Sequence record: OR670491
Length of the DNA stretch: 64,000 bases
Direction: 5' to 3' (one strand)
From: Escherichia phage vB_EcoM_JNE01
In this document: piece after piece, positions 2,089-56,405 of the stretch
How the letters are laid out: every line of letters starts with the position of its first letter
Numbering within the stretch: position 1 is the stretch's first letter
Notes under the pieces: generated by a model
Database searches by the model: none
The model's input: the letters and a program-made list of their open reading frames with translations, nothing else
Told to the model about the DNA's origin: nothing
Position numbers and translations under genes: made by a program

Positions 2089-2115
2089 GCCAGTACAAAG
2101 TACTGGCTTTATTTT
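2089..2115. terminator. bidirectional rho-independent terminator between convergent gene blocks
   Basis: gccagtac-aaa-gtactggc hairpin flanked by A-run upstream and T-run downstream; lies between plus gene end 2085 and minus gene end 2114. Confidence 0.6.
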
Positions 2116-3319: not shown

Positions 3320-3396
3320 AAAATCCTCCTTTATTCATTATACTATATTTAGCCAAAAAGGAAAAGCCAGTACTTGAGTACTGGCATTATAAAGAA
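3320..3396 (-). promoter_or_regulatory. conserved inter-cassette junction: terminator hairpin, TATAAT-like element, AGGAGG RBS
   Basis: minus-strand reading: gccagtactcaagtactggc hairpin + T-run, then aaatatagtataatgaataaaggagg before ATG; near-identical copies between array genes. Confidence 0.55.
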
Positions 3397-4572: not shown

Positions 4573-4646
4573 AATTTCTCTCCTTTATTCATTATAATGT
4601 ATTTACCCAAAAAAAGAAATGCCAGTACTGGAGTACTGGCATTATA
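4573..4646 (-). promoter_or_regulatory. conserved inter-cassette junction (hairpin terminator + promoter-like element + RBS)
   Basis: gccagtactggagtactggc hairpin at about 4621-4640 and conserved junction sequence. Confidence 0.5.
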
Positions 4647-5990
4647 TTATTGTAAAGGTATTTCAGTTAAGGTGCTATATTGTGTTCCGTTATATATACC
4701 CCTCCAGTATAATTTACCTTCAGTACTAATAACTAATAAACCATATGTTGTAAACCCTAGAGTTCCTCCGACATACATAGCATCTTTTATTCTAATACCA
4801 ATGTCTTCATATGTAAACTCTGATACTTCACCAGCATTCCACGCTGGACTGTAATAATAATCAGTATAAACACCATGTGCTTTATATAGGGACGTCAATC
4901 CAGGTTCAAAAATTACAGTTCCGCAGTAGTTCATTCTTATTTTAGTACTGGATGAAGTTGGTATATTACCAAAAATATTATCTTTTAACCCAGTAGTTAG
5001 AACGTTGAAACCACCACCAATGGAGTTAACGTTATTCACGCCACTTAGACTCATACCAACGTTGTATCCCATGCAATACACACTACTGCTACCATTCCAG
5101 TAAGAAAAACCGCCGCCACGACCACAACGATATAATTGTGAATTTGAACAGTACATCATACCTTCGTTTGATGCGTCATAGTCGTCTGCTGTTCCAATTG
5201 TAGCTACAGTAGTCCAAGTTTTAATTACTTGGTTTGCACTAGCTGGTGTTTGTATGCCATATCTGATATTATATCCCTTACCGACTATGGTCCCATCTAA
5301 TAATTTGGCATACAGTACTGGTCTAGCCCCATTATAATAAACGTTATTATGTGACATATCAATTGTACTTCGTAATGAAACTGCTTTTTGTGTCAATTGG
5401 TTATCTTTAGTAAAAGATGAAAAGTAGTAATCTGCTGTGGAGTTGTTTATTAAACCCTGAAAGGACTGACCCATATACCAGACTTCTCCGTTTGAGTTCA
5501 ATGCTGCCAAAATACAACTATATTTGGATGTGTACCCAGTATTAGTGCCTGGACCTTTATCATACCCACCACTGAATACCATATCAACGACATCACCAAC
5601 GCTAGTGAAATATGACGAAACATCGATGAATCCAGATGTTAAAAATGGTGCAGTCGTCATCCCTGTATTTGTGAATATTCCATTTGCATATACACCACAA
5701 AAATTATACGAACCATCAATATCCTGTACTATGATACCATTAGAAAGTAACCAAAAGTTTTTTACATTTTTACGAACCAATTCAACACCTGCACCATTAT
5801 TAGGAGTTATTCCAAATGTAATTGCTTTAGTTGTGCCCATGCCATATAAATTCCCATTGGTTGCTAATATTGCACCAAGCCAGTTTCCACCTCCATTACT
5901 ATTACGACCCATACCAATGGAATCGAATTTCTTTACAGTTGGAGCTTCTACTGTATTCCCATAATCAAATAATCTAACAAAAGGTAACAT
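4647..5990 (-). CDS. RCC1-like beta-propeller repeat protein, paralogue 3 of 9
   Basis: 447-aa ORF; N-terminus MLPFVRLFDYGN; Gly/Asn/Thr/Tyr-rich repeats. Confidence 0.65.
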   Translation of the reverse strand: MLPFVRLFDYGNTVEAPTVKKFDSIGMGRNSNGGGNWLGAILATNGNLYGMGTTKAITFGITPNNGAGVELVRKNVKNFWLLSNGIIVQDIDGSYNFCGVYANGIFTNTGMTTAPFLTSGFIDVSSYFTSVGDVVDMVFSGGYDKGPGTNTGYTSKYSCILAALNSNGEVWYMGQSFQGLINNSTADYYFSSFTKDNQLTQKAVSLRSTIDMSHNNVYYNGARPVLYAKLLDGTIVGKGYNIRYGIQTPASANQVIKTWTTVATIGTADDYDASNEGMMYCSNSQLYRCGRGGGFSYWNGSSSVYCMGYNVGMSLSGVNNVNSIGGGFNVLTTGLKDNIFGNIPTSSSTKIRMNYCGTVIFEPGLTSLYKAHGVYTDYYYSPAWNAGEVSEFTYEDIGIRIKDAMYVGGTLGFTTYGLLVISTEGKLYWRGIYNGTQYSTLTEIPLQ

Positions 5991-6062
5991 ATATTCCTCC
6001 TTTATTCATTATACTATATTTAGCCAAAAAGGAAAAGCCAGTACTTGAGTACTGGCTTTATG
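5991..6062 (-). promoter_or_regulatory. conserved inter-cassette junction (hairpin terminator + promoter-like element + RBS)
   Basis: gccagtacttgagtactggc hairpin at about 6037-6056; junction identical to 3320-3396 over most of its length. Confidence 0.5.
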
Positions 6063-7214
6063 TCAATAAACATCCCAAGGTAATGGTGTCTTTCTAAACC
6101 CATACCTAGTTGCGTTCTGCCCATCTCCGGCTATGTATCTACCAGTACCACACTGATATAATTCAGTACTGCTACATATCGCACCACCAATAGTACCACT
6201 ACCCCACTGAGTTATATTGGAATATAATATTGGCAAATCACTACATTTAGTATATAATGCAACAGTAGCAGCACCACTCGCACCACCAAAAACACTTCGG
6301 TTCGAACCCGTGTAATATATACCATCTGGACTCATAAATGCGGAAGTATAAGTTGTACTACAATCCACTGGACTTCTTATATTATTAAGATCACTTGGGT
6401 ATACCCTAGCACCATATGTGTATACATTACCTGTAGTAGTAATACCATTACCTAACTGACCATTATTTTGTCCACCACATGTAACTAACGATCCACTACC
6501 AGAAACAATGGCAGTAGCATTATAAGAAGTACCTATAACAATAGAAGCTCCCGCCAATAGGTATGGGGCAGGAACTCCGGCTGCATTCCCCTGACCTAAT
6601 TCACCATTGACATTTCTTCCCCATCCGTATACAGAAGTGGTATCCAATTGGCATAGTACTGAACCATAACTAAACGTATATCGTATATCCTTCACTGCCG
6701 ATGGTAAACCACTAACTTTAGTTGCAACACTAATAACGCCAGAAACGCCTGTTACTCCAGCGTTCGCGTTCAGATTACGTCCATATGCATATAAAGAGCC
6801 ATCAGCAGTTTTAATATGCATCATGCCATCTGTGCAATATAATGTATCTATACTACCCACTGCAACCTCTCCCATACTGGACGTTATATCGTTCCACCCA
6901 AGCGTTGTAGTACTAGAAATTAAGTTATTTCCGGCGTAAAGTATTCTATTATCATTAGTAACTACTACTGTATAATTGGCAGTAACGCCAATTAATCTAA
7001 CTTTCTCGTATATCTTAGACCACATTCCTATTGAATTTGTGTTAGTATCCAGAAACCCCAACTGACCAGCGGTATTATATCCAATACCCCACACATCACC
7101 TTCACTATCCAATAACACTTCATGGGAAAAACCAATCTTAAAATCTTTTATCGTTGGTGTTTCTGGAACAGGTTTAATATTTCCGTACTTAACCATTCTA
7201 GCAAAAGGTAACAT
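6063..7214 (-). CDS. RCC1-like beta-propeller repeat protein, paralogue 4 of 9
   Basis: 383-aa ORF; N-terminus MLPFARMVKYGN; clear RCC1-type motifs WGIGYNTAGQLGF, GWGRNVNGELGQGN, CGGQNNGQLGNG. Confidence 0.75.
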   Translation of the reverse strand: MLPFARMVKYGNIKPVPETPTIKDFKIGFSHEVLLDSEGDVWGIGYNTAGQLGFLDTNTNSIGMWSKIYEKVRLIGVTANYTVVVTNDNRILYAGNNLISSTTTLGWNDITSSMGEVAVGSIDTLYCTDGMMHIKTADGSLYAYGRNLNANAGVTGVSGVISVATKVSGLPSAVKDIRYTFSYGSVLCQLDTTSVYGWGRNVNGELGQGNAAGVPAPYLLAGASIVIGTSYNATAIVSGSGSLVTCGGQNNGQLGNGITTTGNVYTYGARVYPSDLNNIRSPVDCSTTYTSAFMSPDGIYYTGSNRSVFGGASGAATVALYTKCSDLPILYSNITQWGSGTIGGAICSSTELYQCGTGRYIAGDGQNATRYGFRKTPLPWDVY

Positions 7215-7285
7215 AATTCCTCCTTTTATTTGTTATACTATATTTAATAAAAAAGAAAAGCCAGTATCAAGTACTGGCATTATTA
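7215..7285 (-). promoter_or_regulatory. conserved inter-cassette junction (hairpin terminator + promoter-like element + RBS)
   Basis: gccagtatcaagtactggc hairpin at about 7260-7278. Confidence 0.5.
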
Positions 7286-8476
7286 TTACAATTGTCTAGG
7301 TGTATCCAGAACATATCTATTTGTACTAGGACCACCATCATCATCAGTTCCGGTTGAATATATATTTTTCATATCAGCAGTTAGAAAAGTACGATACGAA
7401 CCGCGATATATTTTTATTTTATCATACATAGAATATGTTATTTCTGACGGCAATGGACATGCAGTAAATTTACCAATGGTAACATCAGAACCAACACCCA
7501 ATGTGCCAGCATAACTACTCGCATTTAAACCAGTTGCATATACACCTGCACTCGTAACTAGTATACTAGATTGTGTTGGGTATCCAGTATGAATTGAATA
7601 CAAAGTACCGGGTGGTAAGGTTGTACTATTGTTTCCTAAAACTCCATTAACAGTGCTAGATGTAGTTTTATTTCCCCATGCTCCATTATTAGCTAATCCA
7701 CCAACTAGAAACTGACGTGCTCCTGTATTTGGATTCTCCACTAAAGCACTGACTGAACCCATTGAGCATACAGTGTATTGTAACGTTTTTGTGTATGTTG
7801 TACTTGGCTGATATAAAGTATATTCATTATATAAAGTCCATGTAGTGCTGGAACTTATACCGGATGTACCACCACCAATATATAAATTATTTTGTGTATC
7901 AAAAAACATTGCACAGCTATTTGTTGACATTATTTGTGCAATATCAACATCTGGTGTTACAGCTTTAACAAATGAACCATCGGTTATTTGTTGAGTTTTT
8001 CCAGTACCATCAGCGAATTGTTTAGCCCCACTCCAACCAGTACTCCATATTGTATTATTATCCATTAAGAAAGTAAACCACGTAGTACCTGCATACATCT
8101 GTTTAATTGAAGTACTTGAACTTTGTGTGAACAAATTTTCAATATATTGGTTATAACTTAAAAATGATGTAGTACTAGTTTCTAAACCAATATAACCACC
8201 ATAGCCACAATAAAAATAATTTAAGTCATTATCTTGTACTAACAAAGTTCCTTCTGACATCCAACAATCGTTAACGTTTTCTCTAATTAATGTCCATGTT
8301 CTTAATGCAGTGTTGTTTCCTCTCCCAAACTTCCCAAAACTATTATTGCCTCGTGCGTATAGTTGACCATCAGTATAAAGTACAACAACATCACTATTGA
8401 TTGGTATTATTTTCTTAATTTGAAGAGGCTCAGGTGTAATATTTCCATAATCAAACATTCTAACAAAAGGTAACAT
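7286..8476 (-). CDS. RCC1-like beta-propeller repeat protein, paralogue 5 of 9
   Basis: 396-aa ORF; N-terminus MLPFVRMFDYGN; motif GNNSFGKFGRGNN. Confidence 0.65.
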   Translation of the reverse strand: MLPFVRMFDYGNITPEPLQIKKIIPINSDVVVLYTDGQLYARGNNSFGKFGRGNNTALRTWTLIRENVNDCWMSEGTLLVQDNDLNYFYCGYGGYIGLETSTTSFLSYNQYIENLFTQSSSTSIKQMYAGTTWFTFLMDNNTIWSTGWSGAKQFADGTGKTQQITDGSFVKAVTPDVDIAQIMSTNSCAMFFDTQNNLYIGGGTSGISSSTTWTLYNEYTLYQPSTTYTKTLQYTVCSMGSVSALVENPNTGARQFLVGGLANNGAWGNKTTSSTVNGVLGNNSTTLPPGTLYSIHTGYPTQSSILVTSAGVYATGLNASSYAGTLGVGSDVTIGKFTACPLPSEITYSMYDKIKIYRGSYRTFLTADMKNIYSTGTDDDGGPSTNRYVLDTPRQL

Positions 8477-8553
8477 AACTAATTCTCCAAATTCAAATAA
8501 TTATAATGTATTTACAAAAAAAATACCAGCACATATTTCAGTACTGGTATCAT
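8477..8553 (-). promoter_or_regulatory. inter-cassette junction (degenerate hairpin + promoter-like element)
   Basis: accagcac...gtactggt imperfect hairpin at about 8524-8550; junction more diverged than the others. Confidence 0.4.
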
Positions 8554-9735
8554 TTATGGTAAAATGATAGATTGTAACGAACTCATACCCAATGCTGGAA
8601 CACTAGCCTGTGGTGCTGGAGAATTCAATTTTGGTGATGAAACCGCATATGACATTCCTGAACCCAAATCTGGATCAAAAACTACAGCACAATAATTCCC
8701 ACTATATATAAGTCCATTCTTGTATCCTTGTGCACTTTGAATGCATTTCGTGAACGTACCAATATCTGTAGTGGCATTTATTAAGTTCCTCCCACGATAA
8801 CCGCAGGTGTATATGAAATTATCATCGCCTATGTACATACTAGAATCCCCAGAAGAACTACATAGATAAGACATATAAGCACGCATGTTTTTAGGAGCAA
8901 CTGACAATGTACCTGCATAGAATTTATTATTCGAACCCGTAATATCACCATCACCCAATGCACCAAAACTTCCCCAGCCAGTACCATAATATCTCTTATC
9001 ACTCAAGAATATAATACAGTTGTTATTACACATCTTGACTTGATATATCAATGAAGGATCAACCCCAGGGAATGATTCAGTGTATGTTAGAACAGCCAGA
9101 TCAGTACTAGCATTACATTGATGATATGTATTAGTACCAGCGGACAAGATTGTTCCATTAGCTAACAGAATTCTCGCAGTACCAGTACCAGCAGTACAAG
9201 CAACTGCACTTCCTGCACTTCCGGTGTATATTTGTCTGAAAGTAAAGAAACCAACAGTTTTACTTCCCTGCCCACTCCAACCAGTATTATCAACTCCACA
9301 CGCCCATACTGAACCATCTTCCATGATCATCATTACACCAAAGCGTTCTATTGAAATATAAACAATCTTTTTAGTATCAACTGCACGAAATCTAGAAGTT
9401 ATATCAGTCCATACCTTAACACTTACCGCCGTCGCACTGGAAGTAGGATCTTCACCAGCTATCATTATCCTCCCATTGTTAGTAAGATACATTGTCTGAC
9501 TATAACCAGTACTACAAAACTTAACACTATCAGTCTCTGGAACTTTTAACCACTCGTTGTAACGTGTTACGTTAGTGTTATTACCTAACTGATAATAGTT
9601 ATTCATCCCAGATACATATAACACACCATCCTTTATTAAACTATAAGTCGCACTATAGTCACTACAGGTATAACGTGTACCCACAGGTGGCTCAACGACG
9701 TTCCCATAATCAAACATTCTAACAAAAGGTAACAT
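8554..9735 (-). CDS. RCC1-like beta-propeller repeat protein, paralogue 6 of 9
   Basis: 393-aa ORF; N-terminus MLPFVRMFDYGN; motif GMNNYYQLGNNTN. Confidence 0.65.
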   Translation of the reverse strand: MLPFVRMFDYGNVVEPPVGTRYTCSDYSATYSLIKDGVLYVSGMNNYYQLGNNTNVTRYNEWLKVPETDSVKFCSTGYSQTMYLTNNGRIMIAGEDPTSSATAVSVKVWTDITSRFRAVDTKKIVYISIERFGVMMIMEDGSVWACGVDNTGWSGQGSKTVGFFTFRQIYTGSAGSAVACTAGTGTARILLANGTILSAGTNTYHQCNASTDLAVLTYTESFPGVDPSLIYQVKMCNNNCIIFLSDKRYYGTGWGSFGALGDGDITGSNNKFYAGTLSVAPKNMRAYMSYLCSSSGDSSMYIGDDNFIYTCGYRGRNLINATTDIGTFTKCIQSAQGYKNGLIYSGNYCAVVFDPDLGSGMSYAVSSPKLNSPAPQASVPALGMSSLQSIILP

Positions 9736-9811
9736 AATTCCCTCCTTTATTCATTATACTATATTTAATCAAAAAAAAAGAAATGTCAGTACTCAAGTAC
9801 TGGCATTGTGT
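9736..9811 (-). promoter_or_regulatory. conserved inter-cassette junction (hairpin terminator + promoter-like element + RBS)
   Basis: gtcagtactcaagtactggc hairpin at about 9785-9804. Confidence 0.5.
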
Positions 9812-21009: not shown

Positions 21010-21165
21010 CATTGGCAGATAAGCCGTAGCCCATAGGGTGCGGGAGTGTATCTATAGAAAAATTAGTTTAGTATAGTTACAATTGTGCACCCGGTGGGTT
21101 AGCTGTTGTCATGGGGTATATTATGCCAGTACTTGATAATTCTGTCAATACTTTTTTTTTACTAT
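21010..21165. ncRNA. candidate convergently transcribed non-coding locus (plus- and minus-strand promoters facing each other across inverted CCCAYMGGGTGC boxes)
   Basis: plus promoter at 20978-21005; minus promoter at 21120-21148; no ORF; boxes at about 21031 and 21090 form an imperfect long inverted repeat; T9 run at about 21155. Confidence 0.3.
21120..21148 (-). promoter_or_regulatory. minus-strand promoter (TTGACA-N17-CATAAT)
   Basis: reverse complement reads ttgacagaattatcaagtactggcataat. Confidence 0.45.
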
Positions 21166-27450: not shown

Positions 27451-27560
27451 AAAAAGTGGTTGACTCCGGTCAGCCATTTTGCTATTATATATTCATTGAG
27501 AGATAGCTCACTAGCCCACAGGGTGCATAAGTGTATCTATTATATGAGTATTGAGTACTG
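27451..27560 (+). promoter_or_regulatory. repeat module: hairpin with embedded TTGACT -35, TATTAT -10, CCCACAGGGTGC box
   Basis: one of four full copies (also about 31468-31575, 34741-34850, 37487-37625). Confidence 0.5.
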
Positions 27561-31467: not shown

Positions 31468-31575
31468 GAAAAAGGGATTGACTCCGGTCAGTCCCTTTGT
31501 TATTATATACGCATAGAAACAAATTAGCCCACCGGGTGCATAAATGTATCTATTGTTTGCTGGTGGCTAGTACTG
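31468..31575 (+). promoter_or_regulatory. repeat module: hairpin gggattgactccggtcagtccc with embedded -35, TATTAT -10, CCCACCGGGTGC box, Chi octamer
   Basis: copy of the 27451-27560 module; GCTGGTGG at about 31559. Confidence 0.5.
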
Positions 31576-33874: not shown

Positions 33875-34117
33875 ATGATTACTTTAGAAAAACGTATCAA
33901 AGAAACTACATCGCTGGTGGAACTGTTAACAGTACTCAAATGTAAAACAGCACCATTCAGCACGCCGGACTTTATTAATATGGTTGATGTTAATGGTCGC
34001 TATCGTATCACGGTCGAACAAGGAGCGGCGAAAGTATTCAGTACTAAAAACACGAAGGAAGTGATCCACGCCGTTAATGTTAAAAAAGTAGTTGCCATTG
34101 ATAGTAAAGTACTGTAA
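33875..34117 (+). CDS. hypothetical early protein
   Basis: preceded by a near-identical copy of the 33541-33597 promoter/leader. Confidence 0.55.
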   Translation: MITLEKRIKETTSLVELLTVLKCKTAPFSTPDFINMVDVNGRYRITVEQGAAKVFSTKNTKEVIHAVNVKKVVAIDSKVL

Positions 34118-34148
34118 TATAGTTTCATTAACTCAAGGAGATCATGCA

Positions 34149-34733
34149 ATGCGTAATTATACAAAATTCATCCGTACACTGTCAGAAATGGAAACCAACA
34201 AAGAGATCCTTTCAGCTTGTCGGTTAGCTGACCTGGAGATCATCGGTGCTGGTTCTTCCCGTATAGTTTTCGCTTTAAATGATCGGTTAGTGATTAAGGT
34301 CGCGAATTGTGATGCGGGTGTAGAACAAAATGAAACTGAATGTAAGGTATGGAATTTTTTAGACTATGACCGCCCTCAGTTGAAACAGTACTTTGCAAAG
34401 GTGCATATGCATTTATGCGATCCTGATAATATGTTTATCGTTATGGATCGGTTGAGTACTGCAAGCAAAGGCAGTGTGAAGCACGTAAACGCGTGCAATG
34501 AATTAAAGTACAATATTAAACGTAATGCAATCGAACGCCAGCACCGCTTTGCTGATGCACTACAACACGTTGATGATACATTATCAACACTAACGATAAG
34601 AGATATCAGAAAACAGAATATCGGCCAGGATCGTAATGGACTTATTAAAGTACTTGATTACGGTTTAACCAGCAATATCTGGAATCAGTACTATAAAAAG
34701 CGTGATGTGGCAGCAAGTAAGGTAACACGATAA
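34149..34733 (+). CDS. putative minimal protein kinase-like protein
   Basis: ordered kinase-like motifs: glycine loop IGAGSSRIVF, lysine in VIKVA, catalytic-loop-like IRDIRKQNIG, DFG-like VLDYG; start MRNYTKF after AAGGAG RBS. Confidence 0.5.
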   Translation: MRNYTKFIRTLSEMETNKEILSACRLADLEIIGAGSSRIVFALNDRLVIKVANCDAGVEQNETECKVWNFLDYDRPQLKQYFAKVHMHLCDPDNMFIVMDRLSTASKGSVKHVNACNELKYNIKRNAIERQHRFADALQHVDDTLSTLTIRDIRKQNIGQDRNGLIKVLDYGLTSNIWNQYYKKRDVAASKVTR

Positions 34734-34740
34734 AAAAGAT

Positions 34741-34850
34741 TAAAAAAAGGGATTGACTCCGGTCAGTCCCTTTGCTATTATATATCCATTGAGAGATAAC
34801 TCACTGACCCATAGGGTGCGGAAGTGTATCTATTATATAAGTATTCAGTA
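34741..34850 (+). promoter_or_regulatory. repeat module: hairpin with embedded -35, TATTAT -10, CCCATAGGGTGC box (copy of 27451-27560)
   Basis: gggattgactccggtcagtccctttgctattatat...gacccatagggtgcggaagtgtatc. Confidence 0.5.
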
Positions 34851-37486: not shown

Positions 37487-37625
37487 AGAATAAAAAAAGG
37501 GATTGACTCCGGTCAGTCCCTTTGCTATTATATACGCATAGACAAAAACTAGCCCACAGGGTGCATAGGTGTATCCAAAATATATAGTTAATAACGGTGA
37601 GTAACTATCTGCTGGTGGAACTAAA
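37487..37625 (+). promoter_or_regulatory. repeat module: hairpin with embedded -35, TATTAT -10, CCCACAGGGTGC box, Chi octamer
   Basis: copy of 27451-27560 module; GCTGGTGG at about 37611. Confidence 0.5.
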
Positions 37626-38827: not shown

Positions 38828-39002
38828 TGCGTAAAAGGATTTAGTACTGATGCATTTTAAATTTTAGTCATTTTTTAAAAACTACGCAAAAAAACTAAAC
38901 CAATACCTTAGCGTAATAGTTTAGGGATTGGACTATGTTTTTATGCGTGGGGGGGCTAGTATGGGGTAACCTTAGCTCGATCGTGAAGTAGCCCATAGGG
39001 TA

Positions 39003-39030
39003 TTGACTTTTTATATGGAACGTGTAAAAT
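39003..39030 (+). promoter_or_regulatory. promoter (TTGACT-N16-TAAAAT) for the LGTNYQE array
   Basis: ttgactttttatatggaacgtgtaaaat followed by AAGGAG RBS and GTG start. Confidence 0.5.
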
Positions 39031-39060: not shown

Positions 39061-39291
39061 GTGAAAAACTTAAGTAAAGATGAATACGATGAGTTACTTA
39101 TACGAACTGTTAATAAAGCCTTTGGAGCCGCTACACCGTTGATACGTTTGGATTACTTCCTTTCGGCTACTCTAGGAACTAACTATCAGGATTTTTGGAT
39201 AGATAAGTATATTGCACAACTAAAAGAAGATATAACTTACAAGGTAGTCAATTACACTATACAAAACGCTATTACTAAAGGTAACAAATGA
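39061..39291 (+). CDS. small protein, LGTNYQE-motif family (member 1)
   Basis: GTG start after AAGGAG; motif LSATLGTNYQDFWIDKYI. Confidence 0.6.
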   Translation: MKNLSKDEYDELLIRTVNKAFGAATPLIRLDYFLSATLGTNYQDFWIDKYIAQLKEDITYKVVNYTIQNAITKGNK

Positions 39292-39515
39292 AAGTCATAA
39301 CACAAACACAAGCGTATTCACTTATGCTGCTTTACATGGATGACTTAACCAGTATCTCCCGTGACCTCAATCCTTTGATTAGGGGTCATCTGCAATGTGA
39401 GATTCGCATGTTGGCTGTACTGGGGACCAACTTTCAACTGGAGTACGTTGAAGAATATCTTTACGCACTGAAGAGGTATATTGCACATGAAGCACATCTC
39501 GCCGGACGAACATGA
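39288..39515 (+). CDS. small protein, LGTNYQE-motif family
   Basis: ATGA coupling; motif AVLGTNFQLEYVEEYL. Confidence 0.6.
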   Translation: MKVITQTQAYSLMLLYMDDLTSISRDLNPLIRGHLQCEIRMLAVLGTNFQLEYVEEYLYALKRYIAHEAHLAGRT

Positions 39516-39705
39516 AGAAATCATTAGAAAACTCACACAGCAAGCATTAAATCTGTATAACGATCCATCTAAAACATGGTATGAAAATAGAATCGCAGTG
39601 AGTGACTTATGGGTTCTGCACTTTATCGGGACACAGTATCAAGAAAGGTATCTGGATCACTTGATTGGACATTTACTGCAAGGAATTATAATTAAATGCG
39701 AATGA
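39487..39705 (+). CDS. small protein, LGTNYQE-motif family
   Basis: motif HFIGTQYQERYLDHLI; start MKHISPDEHEE (ATG) chosen over upstream TTG. Confidence 0.55.
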   Translation: MKHISPDEHEEIIRKLTQQALNLYNDPSKTWYENRIAVSDLWVLHFIGTQYQERYLDHLIGHLLQGIIIKCE

Positions 39706-39944
39706 AAATCCTAAGCGAAGTAGAATTTTCTGAAAGAATGAAACTAGGAAGAAACGCCAGATTAAAAGTCTACGATGAAGTGGAGTTAACTAACACACAA
39801 AGAGCCGTAAAGCGTATGGAAATAACATTACCTTACTTCCTTGGGACGAACTATCAGGAAACGATGATAATGAACTATATAAATGAACTTAAAATTCATA
39901 TCCATGAAACATATCAAGGTGTACTGAATGAAAAAACTAAGTAA
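39702..39944 (+). CDS. small protein, LGTNYQE-motif family
   Basis: motif YFLGTNYQETMIMNYI; ATGA coupling. Confidence 0.55.
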   Translation: MKILSEVEFSERMKLGRNARLKVYDEVELTNTQRAVKRMEITLPYFLGTNYQETMIMNYINELKIHIHETYQGVLNEKTK

Positions 39945-40170
39945 TTACGATTACTTCAAACTATTGGACGGCATCAAAGGTGACATACGTTTAATTCATC
40001 AAACTGAATACATTCCAAGGGACGATAGGATTATTATTGTATCAGAAATGAAACTCAAACTCCTTGTGGGAACCGATAGACAGAATATCGCGGTGGACTT
40101 ACTTATATCATCCTTACGCAATAAGATATGGAACCAATATAATGAAGACAATCGACATAAAGGAATTTAA
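39928..40170 (+). CDS. small protein, LGTNYQE-motif family
   Basis: motif LLVGTDRQNIAVDLLI. Confidence 0.55.
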   Translation: MKKLSNYDYFKLLDGIKGDIRLIHQTEYIPRDDRIIIVSEMKLKLLVGTDRQNIAVDLLISSLRNKIWNQYNEDNRHKGI

Positions 40171-40369
40171 CATTAGACTGGCTCGAACTCGTGCACTAAG
40201 ACAACAGATTTTCTACGATACAAACACACCACAAACCAAAAAGGATGTTGCAATATCAGAGATTAACATGTATAGTACCTTGGGAACGCAATACCAAGAG
40301 ATGTACGTCCAAGAGCATGTACTGAACTTAAAAAAGGAAATCCAACATGAAATACATCGATGCCGCTGA
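40142..40369 (+). CDS. small protein, LGTNYQE-motif family
   Basis: motif STLGTQYQEMYVQEHV; family-type start MKTIDIKEF at internal ATG of track ORF 40064..40369. Confidence 0.55.
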   Translation: MKTIDIKEFNIRLARTRALRQQIFYDTNTPQTKKDVAISEINMYSTLGTQYQEMYVQEHVLNLKKEIQHEIHRCR

Positions 40370-40586
40370 AAAACAACGTAGATTAATGGAATCGCTTAAA
40401 GCATGTAAAAAGATTTTCAATGACTATACGATTACACATGAAGAACGAATGGTGCTAATCGCTGAAACCCGCGTTCTGGTTATGCTGGGAACATCTGAAC
40501 AGGAAGGTGCAGTTGAAATCTTACTTAAGGAAATGCAATTCCACTTAAAACGAAGAGGCAAAGATGAAACACTTGACAAGCGATGA
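40347..40586 (+). CDS. small protein, LGTNYQE-motif family
   Basis: motif VMLGTSEQEGAVEILL. Confidence 0.55.
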   Translation: MKYIDAAEKQRRLMESLKACKKIFNDYTITHEERMVLIAETRVLVMLGTSEQEGAVEILLKEMQFHLKRRGKDETLDKR

Positions 40587-40851
40587 ATTGAATGCTAAAT
40601 TAAACCATGCGTTCACAGTAAGAACCAGAATTATGATGAACAAGAATTACAGCATAAACGAAAAACGTATCCTCTGTGTAGAAGCTACGATGGGTGTACT
40701 GTTGGGAACCACTAAGCAAGAGCATCACGTTAATCTTGTTATCTCGGAGTTACTCCAGGAAATCAAAGGTAAAATCTATATTCAAAATATGAGTAAAGCT
40801 ATCCACAGAAAGGATATTGACTCTATCGTATCTTTAAACAGAGAAATTTAA
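40564..40851 (+). CDS. small protein, LGTNYQE-motif family
   Basis: motif VLLGTTKQEHHVNLVI. Confidence 0.55.
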   Translation: MKHLTSDELNAKLNHAFTVRTRIMMNKNYSINEKRILCVEATMGVLLGTTKQEHHVNLVISELLQEIKGKIYIQNMSKAIHRKDIDSIVSLNREI

Positions 40852-41105
40852 TGCAAAATGAAATGATATACTTAACGAACGATGAACTAAAAGTAAGGCT
40901 CGTTAAATCCAGAAGAGATACCAATAACATCCCAAAAGACCCTATGCAATCACCCGCAGAAAGGAGTGCTGAAGTATTATATGCACAACTCTTGTACTTT
41001 CTAGGAACTGATAGACAAGAACATTACGTTCAATCCTGGCTTAGATACACTAAAATTACTATTCAAGAAAAGCTACATGAACAAGAATTTCCTAAGTCGG
41101 AGTAA
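40851..41105 (+). CDS. small protein, LGTNYQE-motif family
   Basis: motif YFLGTDRQEHYVQSWL. Confidence 0.55.
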   Translation: MQNEMIYLTNDELKVRLVKSRRDTNNIPKDPMQSPAERSAEVLYAQLLYFLGTDRQEHYVQSWLRYTKITIQEKLHEQEFPKSE

Positions 41106-41109
41106 TAGA

Positions 41110-41334
41110 ATGCAAAAACCTAAACCACTAGGAACAGCAGAATACATTGAACTAATGGCAGTGAACTTCTCTGCATTTAAGAAACTGCTACAAGAATCAA
41201 AGAATGATTTAGAGTATAAGATTAAGGGTTCTGATTTAAGATTGTTACTTACTCTAGGAACAGACATTCAGGATAAATCTGTTCAAGAGCATATCAGAGC
41301 ACTTACACATAGCATCTGTCATAAACATTCCTAA
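41110..41334 (+). CDS. small protein, LGTNYQE-motif family
   Basis: motif LTLGTDIQDKSVQEHI; ATG with GGAG RBS; track ORF starts upstream at 41077. Confidence 0.55.
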   Translation: MQKPKPLGTAEYIELMAVNFSAFKKLLQESKNDLEYKIKGSDLRLLLTLGTDIQDKSVQEHIRALTHSICHKHS

Positions 41335-41348
41335 ATCGGAGAAATACA

Positions 41349-41576
41349 ATGCAAGCCCAAATCAAAACTCTAACATCTAAAATGTATCACGATGGTTTAA
41401 TGAAGAGATCACCACAGCTACTGGAAATTTCCTCAAGCGATAAAAGTGATGAAGAGATTGAAATGCTCATGCAGGAAGTCAGACTAGATATCACGATAGG
41501 CACTGATGCACAATCAGAATACATTGGTTATTATATTGATTGTACTAAAGATTACATCAAGAGCCTATGCCAATGA
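41349..41576 (+). CDS. small protein, LGTNYQE-motif family
   Basis: motif ITIGTDAQSEYIGYYI. Confidence 0.55.
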   Translation: MQAQIKTLTSKMYHDGLMKRSPQLLEISSSDKSDEEIEMLMQEVRLDITIGTDAQSEYIGYYIDCTKDYIKSLCQ

Positions 41577-41624
41577 CATATTAGTACTGAATACTTAGTA
41601 CTAAATTTTAATTAGGAAAATAAA

Positions 41625-41978
41625 ATGAAAAACATTTGGGGAATTGAAAGTACTAGTACTAAACAAAATGATTTAGCACTTTCAGCGATTGGAGTGGAGT
41701 TTATTAATCTACAAGGAAAGACATTCTTTTTATCGTGTTCTTCTGATGATGACATTAATATGTGTTTTGAATTAGATAAACATAACATTTCTTTATCGTA
41801 CATTAAAAGTGAAGGATTATTATTATATAGAGTGTATGACACTTGTAGTACTATCAGTACTGTTTATTACATCCAGAATAATACTGGAATGATATTAGAT
41901 CAAAATGGAAATGAACACAATCTATTTGGTTTATCTTATAGGGATAGTTCTTATTTAATTTCAAAGATTATGGAGTAA
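41625..41978 (+). CDS. hypothetical protein (non-family insert in the array)
   Basis: 117-aa ORF with AGGAAA RBS; no family motif. Confidence 0.5.
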   Translation: MKNIWGIESTSTKQNDLALSAIGVEFINLQGKTFFLSCSSDDDINMCFELDKHNISLSYIKSEGLLLYRVYDTCSTISTVYYIQNNTGMILDQNGNEHNLFGLSYRDSSYLISKIME

Positions 41979-41981
41979 TTA

Positions 41982-42206
41982 ATGCACACAATAACACCAA
42001 AAGAACTATGGCGTAGGCTAGGACTAACTGCTACTAACTCTAGTCCAATCAGGACTGACCCAAATCTGACTGTCCTAGAGAAGCGTGTTTTAATGCATGA
42101 ATTACAATTGCACAAAACCATAGGAACAAACTACCAGGAACAGTTCGTTGGAATTTACCTTAAGAGTTTACAAGATTTAATTAAACAGAATAAAAGGACA
42201 TTATGA
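41982..42206 (+). CDS. small protein, LGTNYQE-motif family
   Basis: motif KTIGTNYQEQFVGIYL. Confidence 0.6.
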   Translation: MHTITPKELWRRLGLTATNSSPIRTDPNLTVLEKRVLMHELQLHKTIGTNYQEQFVGIYLKSLQDLIKQNKRTL

Positions 42207-42442
42207 GCATCATCTCAATAACCCAAGATGAACTATTACGTAGGATAGGACTAACAACTGCCAGTGCTATTGCAATTCGTAATAATCCAAACTTTACAGT
42301 ACTAGAAAAGTACGCTCTAATGTACGAAGTAAAATTGAATGCTATTTTAGGAACAAACTACCAAGAACAGTTCATTGAAAGTTACGTAAATGCCTTAAAA
42401 GATTTAATTGAACATAATAAAAAGGAATATACCAGAATATGA
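42203..42442 (+). CDS. small protein, LGTNYQE-motif family
   Basis: motif AILGTNYQEQFIESYV; close paralogue of 41982..42206. Confidence 0.6.
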   Translation: MSIISITQDELLRRIGLTTASAIAIRNNPNFTVLEKYALMYEVKLNAILGTNYQEQFIESYVNALKDLIEHNKKEYTRI

Positions 42443-42684
42443 GAATCATTACATCTCAACAGTACAGAAACATTATGCTCAATACTATCCCTGATTGCAG
42501 GGCAATAGATAAACTAACCTTAAGACCTGATGAGCGAAAGTGCAAGTACTATGAACTTATGTACTTTAACTTACTGGGTACTAACTATCAAGAGCATCAT
42601 ATTAAAGCGTACTTAAATGTTTTAAAGGAGAGCACTGAATACCTTATTGAACAATCTAAGAAAGCTAAAAAGAGACAGAAATGA
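42439..42684 (+). CDS. small protein, LGTNYQE-motif family
   Basis: motif NLLGTNYQEHHIKAYL. Confidence 0.6.
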   Translation: MRIITSQQYRNIMLNTIPDCRAIDKLTLRPDERKCKYYELMYFNLLGTNYQEHHIKAYLNVLKESTEYLIEQSKKAKKRQK

Positions 42685-42941
42685 CAGCAATGAAAGAATT
42701 AAGACACGAAGATTACTTTACTTTTATTTCAAAGCACAACCAACAGTACAAAGAATTTAAAGAGCAGAGTACTTCCCATTATGAGTACTGTGTATTAAGT
42801 ACTGATTATACTTTAGGTTTTACAGTAGGAACTACATTACAGGAATACTCTATTGGTTTGCACTTAAATGCTTTAGAAAGATTAATTCAAAGTAAAGTCC
42901 TAGAACATGAACAAGAAAATAAAAATACTAACAAAAAGTGA
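42681..42941 (+). CDS. small protein, LGTNYQE-motif family
   Basis: motif FTVGTTLQEYSIGLHL. Confidence 0.55.
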   Translation: MTAMKELRHEDYFTFISKHNQQYKEFKEQSTSHYEYCVLSTDYTLGFTVGTTLQEYSIGLHLNALERLIQSKVLEHEQENKNTNKK

Positions 42942-43146
42942 ATACGCAGATATCATTTTCAATACTATGCACAAATACCAGTACTTAAAAGATAATTACG
43001 ATTCTATAGAGTTAGAAGTTAAAAAAGCAGACTTAGATGTATTAATAGCTTTAGGTACTAATTATCAAAAGTACAGTACTCCAAGATTAATAGAAGCATT
43101 ACTACAAGAGGTCCAAAGTAAATGCAATGACAATGACAATGAATAA
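42907..43146 (+). CDS. small protein, LGTNYQE-motif family
   Basis: motif IALGTNYQKYSTPRLI. Confidence 0.55.
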   Translation: MNKKIKILTKSEYADIIFNTMHKYQYLKDNYDSIELEVKKADLDVLIALGTNYQKYSTPRLIEALLQEVQSKCNDNDNE

Positions 43147-43393
43147 GAACATAGTAGTAATACAGTACATGAGTTCTGTGCAGTACAAAAATGAAATTGC
43201 TAAAATGCAGAGCAATAGTACAGAAGACCGTTCTAAGTACTTGTGGTTAGTACAATCCAGAGAAATCGTTTTAAATAAATTTATAGGGACAGATGCACAA
43301 GAGTATTGCTTAGAGCAGTACATTGAAGCGTTGATGATGCACATCAGAGGTCTTAAGAAATTACGTTACAGTATTGACAGTACCAGAAAGTAG
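43127..43393 (+). CDS. small protein, LGTNYQE-motif family
   Basis: motif KFIGTDAQEYCLEQYI. Confidence 0.55.
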   Translation: MTMTMNKNIVVIQYMSSVQYKNEIAKMQSNSTEDRSKYLWLVQSREIVLNKFIGTDAQEYCLEQYIEALMMHIRGLKKLRYSIDSTRK

Positions 43394-43442
43394 TGCTATA
43401 GTACCTGTACATTCAAGGTACGTTCAATAAAGGGTAGAGGTT

Positions 43443-43679
43443 ATGATTAAATTAGCATTCGGTATTGTAGTACTGGCACTTGCAATCAGCTTAGGTCTAG
43501 CTGCACTGGAAGTTAATGAATTAGAAGAGATGCATTGCACAAAGACAGGACAGAGTAGAGTTGAAACGGTTTTGATTCCCGTAACGGTTATTGTGAATAA
43601 TATGCCCATCACGAATCTGATTCCTACCCTAACGACAACGTATCAGTACACTTGCGATGACGGAGAGCGATGGAGATAA
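43443..43679 (+). CDS. small secreted/membrane-anchored hypothetical protein
   Basis: N-terminal hydrophobic signal-like segment MIKLAFGIVVLALAISLGLAALEV; GAGG RBS; not a family member. Confidence 0.5.
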   Translation: MIKLAFGIVVLALAISLGLAALEVNELEEMHCTKTGQSRVETVLIPVTVIVNNMPITNLIPTLTTTYQYTCDDGERWR

Positions 43680-43921
43680 TGCATTACAAACATCTTCCAG
43701 AAATGGAATTCAGACGCATGTCCAAGTCAATCAGACAAAAATACATTGCAACACAAAGGTACAACCTAAAGTACAAGCACAATATTCATGACGAACGATT
43801 GCTGTACGTAGTAGGGACAGAGTATCAGGATAGGGTTGTTAATTCATATTTGTACGCCCTAAAAGAGTACATCCTATATCTTTGTAATAACAACAATAAC
43901 AGTACAAAGGACATAAAATGA
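43679..43921 (+). CDS. small protein, LGTNYQE-motif family
   Basis: motif YVVGTEYQDRVVNSYL; ATG with GGAG RBS chosen (track start 43670). Confidence 0.55.
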   Translation: MHYKHLPEMEFRRMSKSIRQKYIATQRYNLKYKHNIHDERLLYVVGTEYQDRVVNSYLYALKEYILYLCNNNNNSTKDIK

Positions 43922-44238
43922 AATTTAATATCCTAAGAGTATCAAAAAGAGCGATTTATGCATATGAGTTTAATTATGATCAATTTGATGTAGATATCAT
44001 TTTGTACAAGAACAGCCAAGGTGAAATGCTTTTTAAGTACCAAAATAGTGAAGCAGATAATATTCCTTTACCGGATTTAACCAAAATGCAAGAGGATGAA
44101 TTCTTTCAGCAGAGCTTAGTATATGATATTGATTTTTATAGTATAGATATTCTTTTAGCTTTACAGAAAAAGATGCACGAAATCTTTAATGATTTAGTCC
44201 AGGGTGATGATAGCACAAGGTTCGTATTCTATGTTTAG
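43918..44238 (+). CDS. FQxS-motif family protein (first member of main array)
   Basis: motif QEDEFFQQSLVYDID; ATGA coupling. Confidence 0.55.
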   Translation: MKFNILRVSKRAIYAYEFNYDQFDVDIILYKNSQGEMLFKYQNSEADNIPLPDLTKMQEDEFFQQSLVYDIDFYSIDILLALQKKMHEIFNDLVQGDDSTRFVFYV

Positions 44239-44434
44239 AAACATAGATCCCAATCAGTACGCAACAATGTACAGAGATTATTGGATGCAAAGTTCCAGTA
44301 CCAAGTCCCTTGCGGAATTTCGTATGATATATTTTCTTGGTACAGAGAATCAAGAAGAAACGATGCTGGACTATATTGAAGTACTAAAGGTTGAAGTACA
44401 AGATGAATACATATTAGGGGTTATGGAGCAGTGA
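44231..44434 (+). CDS. small protein, LGTNYQE-motif family
   Basis: motif YFLGTENQEETMLDYI; internal ATG of track ORF 44204..44434. Confidence 0.5.
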   Translation: MFRNIDPNQYATMYRDYWMQSSSTKSLAEFRMIYFLGTENQEETMLDYIEVLKVEVQDEYILGVMEQ

Positions 44435-47899: not shown

Positions 47900-48087
47900 G
47901 TGAAAATCAGACCAAAATAATTGACAGGATGGTATCCCTGCATATCAGTCAGTACCTTTATGATTCCAGAAGAGGTATTGATACATGGGACATTACAATG
48001 CAATGCATCAGGCTTTTTTATTCGGATTTTAATAATGGATTAAAATGGCTCCAAGAGAGAAAAGATGAGAAAGTACACCAGACATGA
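47884..48087 (+). CDS. small hypothetical protein
   Basis: ORF from track. Confidence 0.4.
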   Translation: MGIMLSENQTKIIDRMVSLHISQYLYDSRRGIDTWDITMQCIRLFYSDFNNGLKWLQERKDEKVHQT

Positions 48088-48265
48088 GTTTATAGTAGAA
48101 ATTCAGGAAGTATTTCAGAGGTGGAAAGCCTTGGGTTTAGAGAATTTTCCGTATCAGGATTTTAAATTATTACATTTTTGGGGTAGTAATATGCAGGACG
48201 CTGTATTAAAAGAGTACCTAAAAGAGATGCAGTACAAGATACAGTACAAGAAGGAACAACAATGA
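48065..48265 (+). CDS. small protein with degenerate LGTNYQE-like motif
   Basis: LLHFWGSNMQDAVLKEYLKEMQYKI resembles family motif. Confidence 0.4.
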   Translation: MRKYTRHEFIVEIQEVFQRWKALGLENFPYQDFKLLHFWGSNMQDAVLKEYLKEMQYKIQYKKEQQ

Positions 48266-53712: not shown

Positions 53713-54238
53713 TATTAACAATCCAGAATCACTTGAGTACTTTTATTCTTTTATTACTAAAGCAGTTCCTTTGATCAAACAATCATTTCTCGAAGGTACT
53801 GAAGATAAACTTCTGAATTCTAAGTACACTATTGATGGCACAGTCCAAGAAAAATCTTCAGCGTTTCAGTCATGTGAAGTGCGTAATGTATTTTGTAAAA
53901 GCGAAGTGCCTGTTATCATTGGGACAAGTGTGTCTAATTCTTTTATGACAGTAGATGATGATGGTAAAATTCTACGTTTCGAGTACACAAGAAAAAGTAA
54001 TGTCTTTGAGTTATTCACTAATACAAAATACAAGTTCAGTTCTTCGTGTAACGCATTTCTTATTCCTGAATATAATTACACAGAATTTGAAGAACAATGT
54101 TTCCAGTTGCGTTGTACCGATGAGAACTGTGAACTAATGATTTTCTTAATGAAACTAAGAATGGTTATGAATAATACATTTGCAATGTACTTACCGTTCT
54201 TAAAAGTAAATGAAGTATTCAATGAAGGTGTACTGTGA
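53702..54238 (+). CDS. FQxS-motif family protein (divergent)
   Basis: motif FEEQCFQLRCTDENCELMIFLMKL; internal ATG of track ORF 53684..54238. Confidence 0.5.
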   Translation: MNININNPESLEYFYSFITKAVPLIKQSFLEGTEDKLLNSKYTIDGTVQEKSSAFQSCEVRNVFCKSEVPVIIGTSVSNSFMTVDDDGKILRFEYTRKSNVFELFTNTKYKFSSSCNAFLIPEYNYTEFEEQCFQLRCTDENCELMIFLMKLRMVMNNTFAMYLPFLKVNEVFNEGVL

Positions 54239-54444
54239 GTAAAATAAAGTACATCAATGATGATTACATTATGAAGAACGCTATTAAGTACTTCAGTAAT
54301 TCTGCCAATCAGGGTGACAATCTTAAGATGGTGGAGATTCGTGTACTCATATACTTAGGAACACAACACCAGGAAAAATTGATTGCAGAATATCTTGATT
54401 CACTAAAACGACATGTAGAGAAAATTTATTATGGAATACAATGA
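54235..54444 (+). CDS. small protein, LGTNYQE-motif family (outlying copy inside FQxS array)
   Basis: motif IYLGTQHQEKLIAEYL. Confidence 0.55.
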   Translation: MSKIKYINDDYIMKNAIKYFSNSANQGDNLKMVEIRVLIYLGTQHQEKLIAEYLDSLKRHVEKIYYGIQ

Positions 54445-55513: not shown

Positions 55514-55882
55514 ATGAAACAGGTATTTCGTTATACGTATTACACTACAAAAAAGCAATTGGTTTCTTTATTTGGTTTCAAGACTTTGAAGACAAATGCA
55601 TATCAAAGGGTATTCATTGGCATTGATGATAATGGTTTCTTTCAATTACTGTCCAATGAAAGTGATAAGTCCTATACTATCCCTGACACTACTGTACTGG
55701 GAGAAGGTGAATTATTCCAGTTGAGTACTGTATGGGATGATTCAGAATATGCATGTAATTTTGAGAATTTTGTTCAGTACCAGAAAATATTACGAACTGA
55801 TTTTGAGAACTACCCAGTGAAAGTATTAAGTACTGGAAACGAACAATACAGACAAAAAGTGGTTGAACTTGATGCGTATTGA
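55514..55882 (+). CDS. FQxS-motif family protein, short A-type
   Basis: motif GEGELFQLSTVWDDSE...YQKIL. Confidence 0.55.
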   Translation: MKQVFRYTYYTTKKQLVSLFGFKTLKTNAYQRVFIGIDDNGFFQLLSNESDKSYTIPDTTVLGEGELFQLSTVWDDSEYACNFENFVQYQKILRTDFENYPVKVLSTGNEQYRQKVVELDAY

Positions 55883-56405
55883 AACAATAAGAACACACAG
55901 TGCAGAAACATTCTTTGATATTTGGCTTGTCCAGGAGCTAATGACTATTGGTTCTATTCCTACGAAATTATTAAATTACACACATAACAATAGTAATTCT
56001 GTACCACACCAATCAATTACCGATAGTAGTGGTGTGGTGTACATGCGTAGTAGTACTAATATTAATAATATAAAAAGTGCATACAATAATTCATGTGGCT
56101 TCTTTACTTATAAATCCGATACTCACCCATCATTCAGTACTATATTACAGGGGAATGTAATTTATCTTGACATGTTGAAACCACAAGAGTATACTGACGA
56201 TGTAATTAATGAAATTAGTACTGCAACAGATCCGAATCTGGTAATTGCTTCTATGGTATTCTCTTACATGAGATACAGTGCTATGCCGTGTACGTGGGCT
56301 TCAGCACCTGATCTCAGGAGATATTTAAATTCACTCCTAGGCACAAACTTCAGAGAACATTTAAATGCACGACGATTTATACAAAATAAACTACAGATTG
56401 AGTAG
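55872..56405 (+). CDS. hypothetical protein with C-terminal LGTNFRE motif
   Basis: C-terminal YLNSLLGTNFREHLNARRFI resembles LGTNYQE family; ATG chosen over TTG 55863. Confidence 0.45.
   Translation: MRIETIRTHSAETFFDIWLVQELMTIGSIPTKLLNYTHNNSNSVPHQSITDSSGVVYMRSSTNINNIKSAYNNSCGFFTYKSDTHPSFSTILQGNVIYLDMLKPQEYTDDVINEISTATDPNLVIASMVFSYMRYSAMPCTWASAPDLRRYLNSLLGTNFREHLNARRFIQNKLQIE

Follow-up and report, generated by a model that had tools for sequence, protein, structure and literature searches.

What does a phage gain from carrying some twenty versions of one small protein, encoded one after the other at one end of its genome? The question is raised by a 64,000-nt stretch of DNA from Escherichia phage vB_EcoM_JNE01 (sequence record OR670491; the whole stretch is called the window below), where positions 39061-44434 of the + strand hold a tandem array of short genes whose products share a G-[TS]-x-x-Q motif. 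The source is an Asteriusvirus, i.e. a jumbo myovirus of the 121Q/PBECO4 type; such phages infect E. coli and Salmonella and have genomes of ~350 kb. It is well supported that the array belongs to a lineage-specific multigene family of 19 contiguous and two dispersed genes, which code for a non-virion three-helix protein of 66-95 aa. As to what the family does, our answer is a tentative one: it may be a battery of early intracellular binding proteins serving host takeover or counter-defence.

A preliminary description of this DNA, made from the letters alone, had reported about 19 tandem paralogues of an ~80-aa protein; the count is exactly 19 and their homology is significant. The 19 genes, all on the + strand, occupy 5.4 kb and code for proteins of 74-101 aa when read from the first start codon, or 72-95 aa from the starts chosen here. 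In each of the 19 open reading frames (ORFs), G-[TS]-x-x-Q is found at roughly two-thirds of the length of the protein. When the 19 array copies and the two dispersed ones presented below were tested by leave-one-out, each scored between 25.7 and 63.4 bits (E-values from 1e-7 to 3e-19) against the model of the other 20, as compared with a top score of at most 15.0 bits for shuffled sequences (200 per sequence). An independent public profile, phrog_4148, matched 21 of 21 copies (best E 3.2e-20, over profile positions 1-73 of 74). The array is therefore a tandem family in the sense of at least three adjacent genes with significant mutual homology.

Further copies had been announced at 48065, at 54235 and in the C-terminus of the ORF at 55872. 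The first two stood: the profile of the 19 array copies picked up 54235-54444 (E 3e-11) and 48065-48265 (E 8e-8), neither of which was in the model, and beyond these no ORF of the window (359 ORFs) did better than E 0.06. The third had to be dropped: in the C-terminus of ORF 55863-56405, 12 residues match (LNSLLGTNFREH), R replaces the invariant Q, and the score is 2 bits (E about 4).

Three ORFs within the array (41625-41978, 43443-43679 and 43918-44238) are not members, and no helix-turn-helix (HTH) regulator gene was recognised among them. The last belongs to the FQxS family, a second expanded family (at least 35 copies of 105-200 aa in the window) whose genes lie immediately downstream of the small-protein array. 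Among sequence records, that of Escherichia phage Turkey5 (PQ471516.1) comes nearest, with 96.4% identity across the array; all the genes there are labelled 'hypothetical protein'. Its GenBank annotation misses three of the twenty array copies (3482-3706, 4065-4370 and 7110-7346 of locus L001) and gives a later start to three more, evidently because the genes overlap, a situation in which the gene caller apparently discarded some of them. The features of the locus are listed below; the seven letters given for each copy are its version of the motif, pI stands for isoelectric point, and fEgEco12 and 121Q are related phages.

38963, no strand: inferred right end of the left direct terminal repeat (DTR), placed by homology to the fEgEco12 DTR only; window 17757-38963 is the counterpart of the 20,993-bp DTR.
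39003-39030, +: putative sigma-70-like promoter, TTGACT-16-TAAAAT, a 10/12 consensus match in the 233-nt gap before copy 1; the segment is 96% conserved with fEgEco12 up to 39059.
39061-39291, +: copy 1, 76 aa, GTG start, LGTNYQD; leave-one-out score 34.6 bits.
39288-39515, +: copy 2, 75 aa, LGTNFQL; family model and phrog_4148.
39487-39705, +: copy 3, 72 aa, IGTQYQE; ATG at 39487, longest ORF from TTG 39481; Turkey5 orthologue unannotated in PQ471516.1.
39702-39944, +: copy 4, 80 aa, LGTNYQE; family model.
39928-40170, +: copy 5, 80 aa, VGTDRQN; 26.5 bits.
40142-40369, +: copy 6, 75 aa, LGTQYQE; ATG at 40142, longest ORF from 40064; Turkey5 orthologue unannotated.
40347-40586, +: copy 7, 79 aa, LGTSEQE; family model.
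40564-40851, +: copy 8, 95 aa, LGTTKQE; its final ~10 codons are left over from the 3' end of a lost neighbour copy.
40851-41105, +: copy 9, 84 aa, LGTDRQE; the protein modelled with AlphaFold2.
41110-41334, +: copy 10, 74 aa, LGTDIQD; ATG at 41110, longest ORF from 41077.
41349-41576, +: copy 11, 75 aa, IGTDAQS, pI 4.6; family model.
41625-41978, +: non-family ORF, 117 aa; no match to the family model, the FQxS model or PHROGs.
41982-42206, +: copy 12, 74 aa, IGTNYQE, pI 10.0; 53% identical to copy 13, the closest pair of the window.
42203-42442, +: copy 13, 79 aa, LGTNYQE; family model.
42439-42684, +: copy 14, 81 aa, LGTNYQE; family model.
42690-42941, +: copy 15, 83 aa, VGTTLQE; ATG at 42690, longest ORF from 42681.
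42907-43146, +: copy 16, 79 aa, LGTNYQK; Turkey5 orthologue unannotated.
43139-43393, +: copy 17, 84 aa, IGTDAQE; ATG at 43139, longest ORF from 43127.
43374-43402, +: second strong sigma-70-like site, TTGACA-17-TATAGT with extended TG, an 11/12 consensus match; precedes the 43443-43679 gene.
43443-43679, +: non-family ORF, 78 aa, hydrophobic N-terminal segment, phrog_8826; positions 43528-43677 are 85% identical to 121Q DNA.
43679-43921, +: copy 18, 80 aa, VGTEYQD; ATG at 43679, longest ORF from 43670.
43918-44238, +: FQxS-family member inside the first array, 106 aa; FQxS model E 1.8e-14, phrog_13866.
44207-44434, +: copy 19, 75 aa, LGTENQE, pI 4.2; 25.9 bits.
48065-48265, +: dispersed copy 20, 66 aa, WGSNMQD, inside the FQxS array; E 8e-8, phrog_4148.
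54235-54444, +: dispersed copy 21, 69 aa, GTG start, LGTQHQE, inside the FQxS array; E 3e-11, phrog_4148.

The first gene does begin, as had been proposed, with the GTG at 39061, 5 nt after an AAGGAG ribosome-binding site. Internal ATG codons are the likelier starts at 39487, 39702, 40142, 41110, 42690, 43139, 43679 and 44207; choosing them restores a common N-terminus, MK-x-[LI]-[ST]. Of the 19 array copies, 13 are preceded by a Shine-Dalgarno-like motif; with the dispersed copies included, the count is 14 of 21. The overlaps mentioned in the preliminary description are there: four junctions are 4-nt ATGA overlaps and nine more are overlaps of 1 nt (one case) or 8-35 nt (eight cases), with only three gaps of 14 nt or more in 5.4 kb. 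Because the genes are packed so tightly, their translation is probably coupled.

The ratio of non-synonymous to synonymous substitution rates (dN/dS) indicates that these genes are under constraint. Pooled over the comparison with Turkey5 it is about 0.30 (0.29-0.30, from 34 synonymous and 41 non-synonymous changes), and across seven phage pairs it ranges from 0.27 to 0.38 for the array, versus 0.14-0.20 for the terminal-repeat genes of the same pairs. These values, well below 1, mean that the array genes are real and selectively maintained, and argue against the possibility that the ORFs are not translated; amino-acid change is tolerated about twice as much in them as in their neighbours. When 137 orthologue pairs were analysed by alignment column, dN/dS was 0.19 for core and motif positions and 0.41 for variable ones. 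The latter figure implies that the surface of each copy is itself conserved.

What kind of protein is being maintained? In the alignment of the 21 copies the mean column identity is 27%, G and Q of the motif are invariant, and T is present in at least 90%. Among 120 copies from five phages, Q is found in 120, T in 118, G in 110 and L62 in 112; further conserved positions are L46, I66, E8, E/D39 (111 copies), E52 and K69, and the conserved hydrophobic positions are spaced with helical periodicity. A monomer structure prediction, which the preliminary description had called for, was run with AlphaFold2 on the paralogue alignment for the 40851-41105 protein. It gave, at very high confidence, a three-helix bundle with a mean predicted local distance difference test score of 96.1 and a predicted template modelling score of 0.81. 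The helices span residues 10-25, 35-48 and 56-79, and a single beta-bridge joins residue 6, within the N-terminal MK-x-L segment, to residue 53, the T of the motif. Read from the secondary-structure string of the model rather than from its coordinates, LGTxxQE would form the turn between helices 2 and 3, docked on the N-terminus, together with the first turn of helix 3. T-x-x-Q would fit the pattern of a helix N-capping box, and the [ST]-x-x-E that opens helix 1 may be a second one; where the helix-1 cap position is occupied, as it is in 110 copies, the residue is S, T, N or D in 99. Such a location would most simply make the motif fold-defining rather than catalytic.

Around this shared frame the copies differ widely. 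Paralogues of the window are 23-53% identical and their pI extends from 4.2 to 10.0, a heterogeneity that points to one scaffold with different surfaces and speaks against a common DNA-mimic or nucleic-acid-binding property. Fold searches with the model returned generic helical bundles alone, with no specific fold relative and no HTH proteins.

The statement that the motif could not be placed in a known family proved robust. In Pfam-A nothing reached the cut-off (the best score was 16.2 bits versus a cut-off of 27, for DAM-like-phage1 and one member), and no Pfam family matched more than two members. NCBIfam gave nothing above threshold (single-member matches at E 0.0035 or weaker), nor did the PADLOC defence profiles (three single-member matches, the best at E 0.00033) or a profile search of PDB sequences. 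One match, to interferon-omega (E 0.0053), was judged to be due to chance, no single stretch of it passing alone. The idea that the family is an expansion of a characterised domain thus finds no support: besides the generic bundles, the one relative found is phrog_4148, which is the same protein family as all 21 window copies (full-length match). This PHROG is an automatic cluster without annotation, to which no fold, array layout, genomic position or evolution is attached, and no prior description of the family was found in the searchable literature. Likewise, nothing on it, expression data included, came up in jumbo-phage reviews or in the papers on CBB, Sharanji, fEgEco12, phAPEC6 and the pangenome.

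When 1.84 billion cluster representatives were searched exhaustively with the profile, this yielded 86 proteins at E <=1e-3, 82 of them with G-[TS]-x-x-Q and nearly all 44-96 aa long; an indexed search of 5.8 billion clusters yielded 29 clusters, all without a name, many of them from contigs of ~350-386 kb. Among 50,697 cultured-phage records, matches were found solely in Escherichia and Salmonella Asteriusvirus genomes, a range given by the two family queries that returned any match, a window copy and P0082, a weak metagenomic match that itself traces back to Asteriusvirus. A metagenomic variant, P0058, had no cultured-phage match. Two metagenomic contigs show the gene series and architecture of the window. 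Among cultured phages the family is therefore restricted to Asteriusvirus, and its copy number varies between close relatives.

The numbers are 21 copies in the window, at least 20 in the Turkey5 array, 24 in Salmonella phage SD-1_S14, 26 in 121Q, 29 in phAPEC6 and 31 in fEgEco12; at least 20 are thus kept in six of the six genomes examined, and also in the two metagenomic contigs. How such numbers can change is illustrated by a clean 173-bp deletion relative to Turkey5. Window positions 40819/40820 join what are positions 4820 and 4994 of the Turkey5 locus (4821-4993 are gone), and Turkey5 retains an intact extra copy at 4822-5040. The deletion accounts for the odd C-terminal tail of the 40564-40851 product, to which the last ~10 codons of the lost copy were fused, and is direct evidence of copy-number change by local deletion.

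A change of another scale is seen when the window is compared with the other phages. Its DNA is collinear with that of 121Q at 85-95% identity up to 39059, after which similarity collapses. Among themselves, the fEgEco12, 121Q, phAPEC6 and SD-1 arrays can be aligned along 89-97% of the length, with an identity of 80-94%. The window array, by contrast, aligns to only 6-11% of any of the four, although the repeat that flanks it is 89-97% identical. Synonymous divergence from fEgEco12 is 0.12 in the repeat versus 0.63 in the array, where it was measured on the four genes that continue to be each other's best match. For the copies of the window, the counterparts by position in 121Q, phAPEC6 and SD-1 are 26-73% identical, with their order roughly kept. 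The 43443-43679 gene, which resembles 121Q, forms an island of conserved DNA in an array that cannot otherwise be aligned. The FQxS array of the window, for its part, is matched by Turkey5 only, whereas for the left part of the window there are many matching phages, at 85-98%. Read most simply, these alignments would mean that a block of at least 25 kb circulates in the genus in two or more versions that diverged long ago, and that recombination swaps them, the first start codon of the array being a breakpoint. The fEgEco12 paper (PMC13070987) remarks that Asteriusvirus genomes differ in blocks of hypothetical and accessory genes.

The position of that breakpoint leads to the question of where the array stands in the genome. 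Window 17757-39059 aligns with positions 1-21089 of fEgEco12 at 91-96% identity, and the direct terminal repeats of fEgEco12, determined by PhageTerm and restriction digests, are 20,993 bp long (PMC13070987). Taken together, the two place the repeat boundary of the window near 38963; 17757-38963 would be a left DTR of ~21 kb and 17757 the physical left end of the genome. The start codon of the array lies 98 nt past the boundary on the same strand, and the fEgEco12 array likewise begins just past its repeat, at 21091. The array is thus at the genome end, beside the terminal repeat and co-oriented with it, the boundary being set by homology to fEgEco12, and that it is the first operon of the unique region is well supported.

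The repeat itself is densely filled with small + strand genes (about 55 small genes) and contains 14 perfect TTGACA-16/17-TATAAT sites on that strand. Its promoter-like sites (103 versus 67 +/- 8.7 in shuffles) and terminator-like sites (25 versus 12.7 +/- 3.8) are both in excess. We take this as a signature of host RNA polymerase at work, which suggests that the repeat is an unusually strong early region for that enzyme. No terminator-like site of the + strand was found between the upstream genes and the promoter-like site at 39003-39030. With this one 10/12 site and no enrichment of promoter-like sites in the array, the latter looks like one long translationally coupled operon, read from 39003-39030 and possibly by read-through. 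The preliminary description had likewise deduced coupled translation from few promoters, which the overlaps, the good sigma-70-like site before the array and the one inside it bear out. From these signals, we infer that the array is expressed early, by the host polymerase.

The repeat and its surroundings have other peculiarities. A 28-nt perfect hairpin (AAAGGGATTGACTCCGGTCAGTCCCTTT) occurs four times on the + strand (27453-27480, 31471-31498, 34746-34773 and 37496-37523), within repeated intergenic elements of ~200 bp. Its stem holds a -35-like TTGACT, followed by a TATTAT box with extended TG; these elements might be regulated promoters or combined terminator-promoter units. The ORF at 34092-34733 (213 aa, in the terminal repeat) has a weak Pfam Pkinase match (E 0.004, below threshold), and its fEgEco12 orthologue is annotated as a serine/threonine kinase. 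Left of the repeat, positions 13484-17439 of the + strand carry 18 back-to-back ORFs, seventeen of 59-81 aa and one of 224 aa (14733-15407), which end just before the inferred genome terminus and may be another small-protein array. Still further left, at 2114-13382 on the - strand, stand about nine paralogues of ~360-450 aa, with RCC1-repeat beta-propeller matches in both of those tested; the homologous 'DNA condensation proteins' of phAPEC6 (gp003-009, gp549 and gp551) were found by mass spectrometry to be virion-associated (PMC7247149).

The virion proteome of phAPEC6 also informs on the small proteins. Its 62 proteins include no entry between gp347 and gp549, and the array homologues are gp462-gp489. 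Since they are absent from phAPEC6 virions, the family proteins are, by analogy with that phage, regarded as non-structural.

Our proposal attempts to account for these properties together. The copies would be made early by host RNA polymerase and would act in the cytoplasm as small binders built on one shared scaffold, each with a surface of its own and a target of its own among host or host-defence proteins. The array would then be a host-takeover or counter-defence repertoire, whose copy number would shift by deletion or duplication between neighbours and whose versions would be exchanged whole between phages by recombination at the first start codon.

Several points weigh against it. No homology or fold match, be it in Pfam, NCBIfam, PADLOC, PDB sequences or the fold searches, indicates a binding function, and no target, interaction or phenotype is on record for the family. 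The array is not enriched in promoter-like sites (29 versus 34.4 expected), and what speaks for early expression is promoter consensus together with position. The virion proteome is that of a relative, phAPEC6, and mass spectrometry easily misses small proteins. Pooled data give no sign of positive selection, not even at the variable columns (dN/dS 0.41), so that a fast arms race is not demonstrated. The invariant Q, with the nearby conserved E, the N/D and E8, could be a shared functional site and not a purely structural cap. Lastly, the interleaving with FQxS genes could mean that the partners are phage proteins.

This last point can be developed into a different explanation, which we consider unlikely: the small proteins would be partners of the FQxS proteins (adaptors, chaperones, inhibitors or regulatory subunits), the two forming one two-component repertoire. 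The families are physically interleaved in the window, with the FQxS gene 43918-44238 in the small-protein array and the small-protein genes at 48065 and 54235 in the FQxS array, as they are in 121Q and fEgEco12, and both arrays were replaced together in the lineage of the window and Turkey5. Moreover, a metagenomic protein of 269 aa, P0077, has an N-terminal domain of the small family (phrog_4148, E 1.2e-10) and an extension of ~200 aa with an FQxS match, and may be a Rosetta-stone link of both families or a gene-calling artefact. That match is however marginal (E 0.007), and the fusion could come from assembly or gene calling. Copy numbers are not 1:1 (21 versus at least 35 in the window and, for fEgEco12 over its first 50 kb, 31 versus at least 34), most copies are in separate blocks rather than paired, and the FQxS family is itself without known function or fold. 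Homology between the two families was ruled out, hhalign giving a probability of 0.1%.

A bolder version, to which we give little credence, makes of both families a combinatorial two-component repertoire of ~25 kb. It would exist as a few ancient haplotypes, swapped whole between phages that are otherwise nearly identical, with the first start codon as the breakpoint, and would decide which E. coli strains or defence systems are overcome. If true, phages would have in this repertoire an equivalent of the variable gene families with which large eukaryotic viruses evade immunity, made from two folds without known relatives.

It is improbable, too, that the array is evolutionary debris, i.e. duplicates that recombination produced where a very large genome tolerates them and that have little or no present function. 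Such a view would accommodate the roughly twofold weaker constraint relative to neighbouring genes, the variable copy number, the recent deletion of one copy without obvious compensation and the fact that the region is not needed for virion structure. It is at odds with a dN/dS well under 1 in all comparisons, variable positions included, and with reading frames intact in 19 of 19 array copies, 13 of them preceded by a Shine-Dalgarno-like motif. Nor would debris be expected to persist at 20 or more copies in six genomes and two metagenomic contigs, or to keep its order, even roughly, between deeply diverged versions.

More doubtful still is a role as small nucleic-acid-binding regulators, of HTH or ribbon-helix-helix type, tuning phage or host transcription. 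The resemblance to Cro/C1-type HTH proteins (Pfam HTH_26/HTH_3) is one of size, of all-helical make-up and of an L-G-T turn after hydrophobic residues, hydrophobic-x-x-L-G-T resembling the HTH turn; the N-terminal beta-strand is reminiscent of ribbon-helix-helix proteins. Weak matches exist as well: two of the 21 members match Cro/C1 HTH_26 (E 0.023 at best), one member each matches RacA and the HipB antitoxin (E 0.0035-0.0068), and one a PADLOC HTH model (E 0.02). Against this, the window helices are much longer, and model geometry, fold search and the spread of charge (pI 4.2-10.0) all disagree. An actual HTH or ribbon-helix-helix identity was rejected, the HTH_26 matches being below threshold and the predicted fold not being a compact, short-helix HTH.

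Finally, the notion of structural or packaged proteins, such as internal head proteins injected with the DNA, to which the virion-associated RCC1-like paralogue arrays of the same phages lend a precedent, is largely refuted by the absence of all of gp462-gp489 from the 62 phAPEC6 virion proteins, despite the detection there of a protein of 4.7 kDa.

The proposal of early host- or defence-directed binders can be set beside known systems. In large virulent phages, host-takeover modules lie in or near long terminal repeats, as exemplified by SPO1 gp37-gp60 and the T5 pre-early genes. The array resembles them in being a set of many small, non-structural, co-oriented genes at a genome end. Theirs stand downstream of very strong host-type promoters, the counterpart here being the repeat with its 14 perfect sigma-70 consensus sites, past which the array starts. 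It differs in that their genes are unrelated, whereas here ~20 paralogues stand just outside the repeat, behind one moderate promoter-like site. Host shut-off belongs to the known modules; the window array is likened to them by position and genes alone.

Bacterial polymorphic-toxin loci, with their tandem diverged immunity genes, and the clustered anti-defence genes of phages offer another parallel. They too are runs of small, diverged and independently conserved paralogues, which is consistent with one scaffold and many targets. The analogy is one of logic only: the array lacks a toxin gene and an associated regulator, and the Pfam, NCBIfam and PADLOC searches brought up no domain known from immunity or anti-defence above threshold.

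As to gene-family expansion as such, African swine fever virus and the poxviruses have terminal multigene families, and Bacillus phage G shows a zinc-ribbon expansion of ~35 copies (PMC7824862). Such families share with the array the tandem arrangement of diverged small-domain paralogues, a variable genome-end region, a strain-dependent copy number (20-31 here) and local deletion or duplication. They differ from it in host and in domain, that of the array being a three-helix bundle and not a zinc ribbon, an ankyrin or another known one. The array is thus a further example of the gene-family expansion known from large viruses, with a fold that is so far unplaced.

To conclude, ~25 kb of DNA (39 to 64 kb of the window), or about 7% of a 350-kb genome, is devoted to two expanded families. 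This block is the most variable one examined in an otherwise conserved genus that is under development for phage therapy. What intrigues most is the sharp cassette replacement, together with the fact that the array is paired with a second large family. Should the array have no role in host takeover or counter-defence, the locus would still document that local duplication, deletion and the exchange of cassettes are ways in which the genomes of jumbo phages grow and turn over. If, on the other hand, its products are host- or defence-directed binders, then each phage would carry a ready-made library of 20-31 natural inhibitors on a tiny scaffold that is predicted with confidence, and haplotype replacement would be a candidate determinant of host range.

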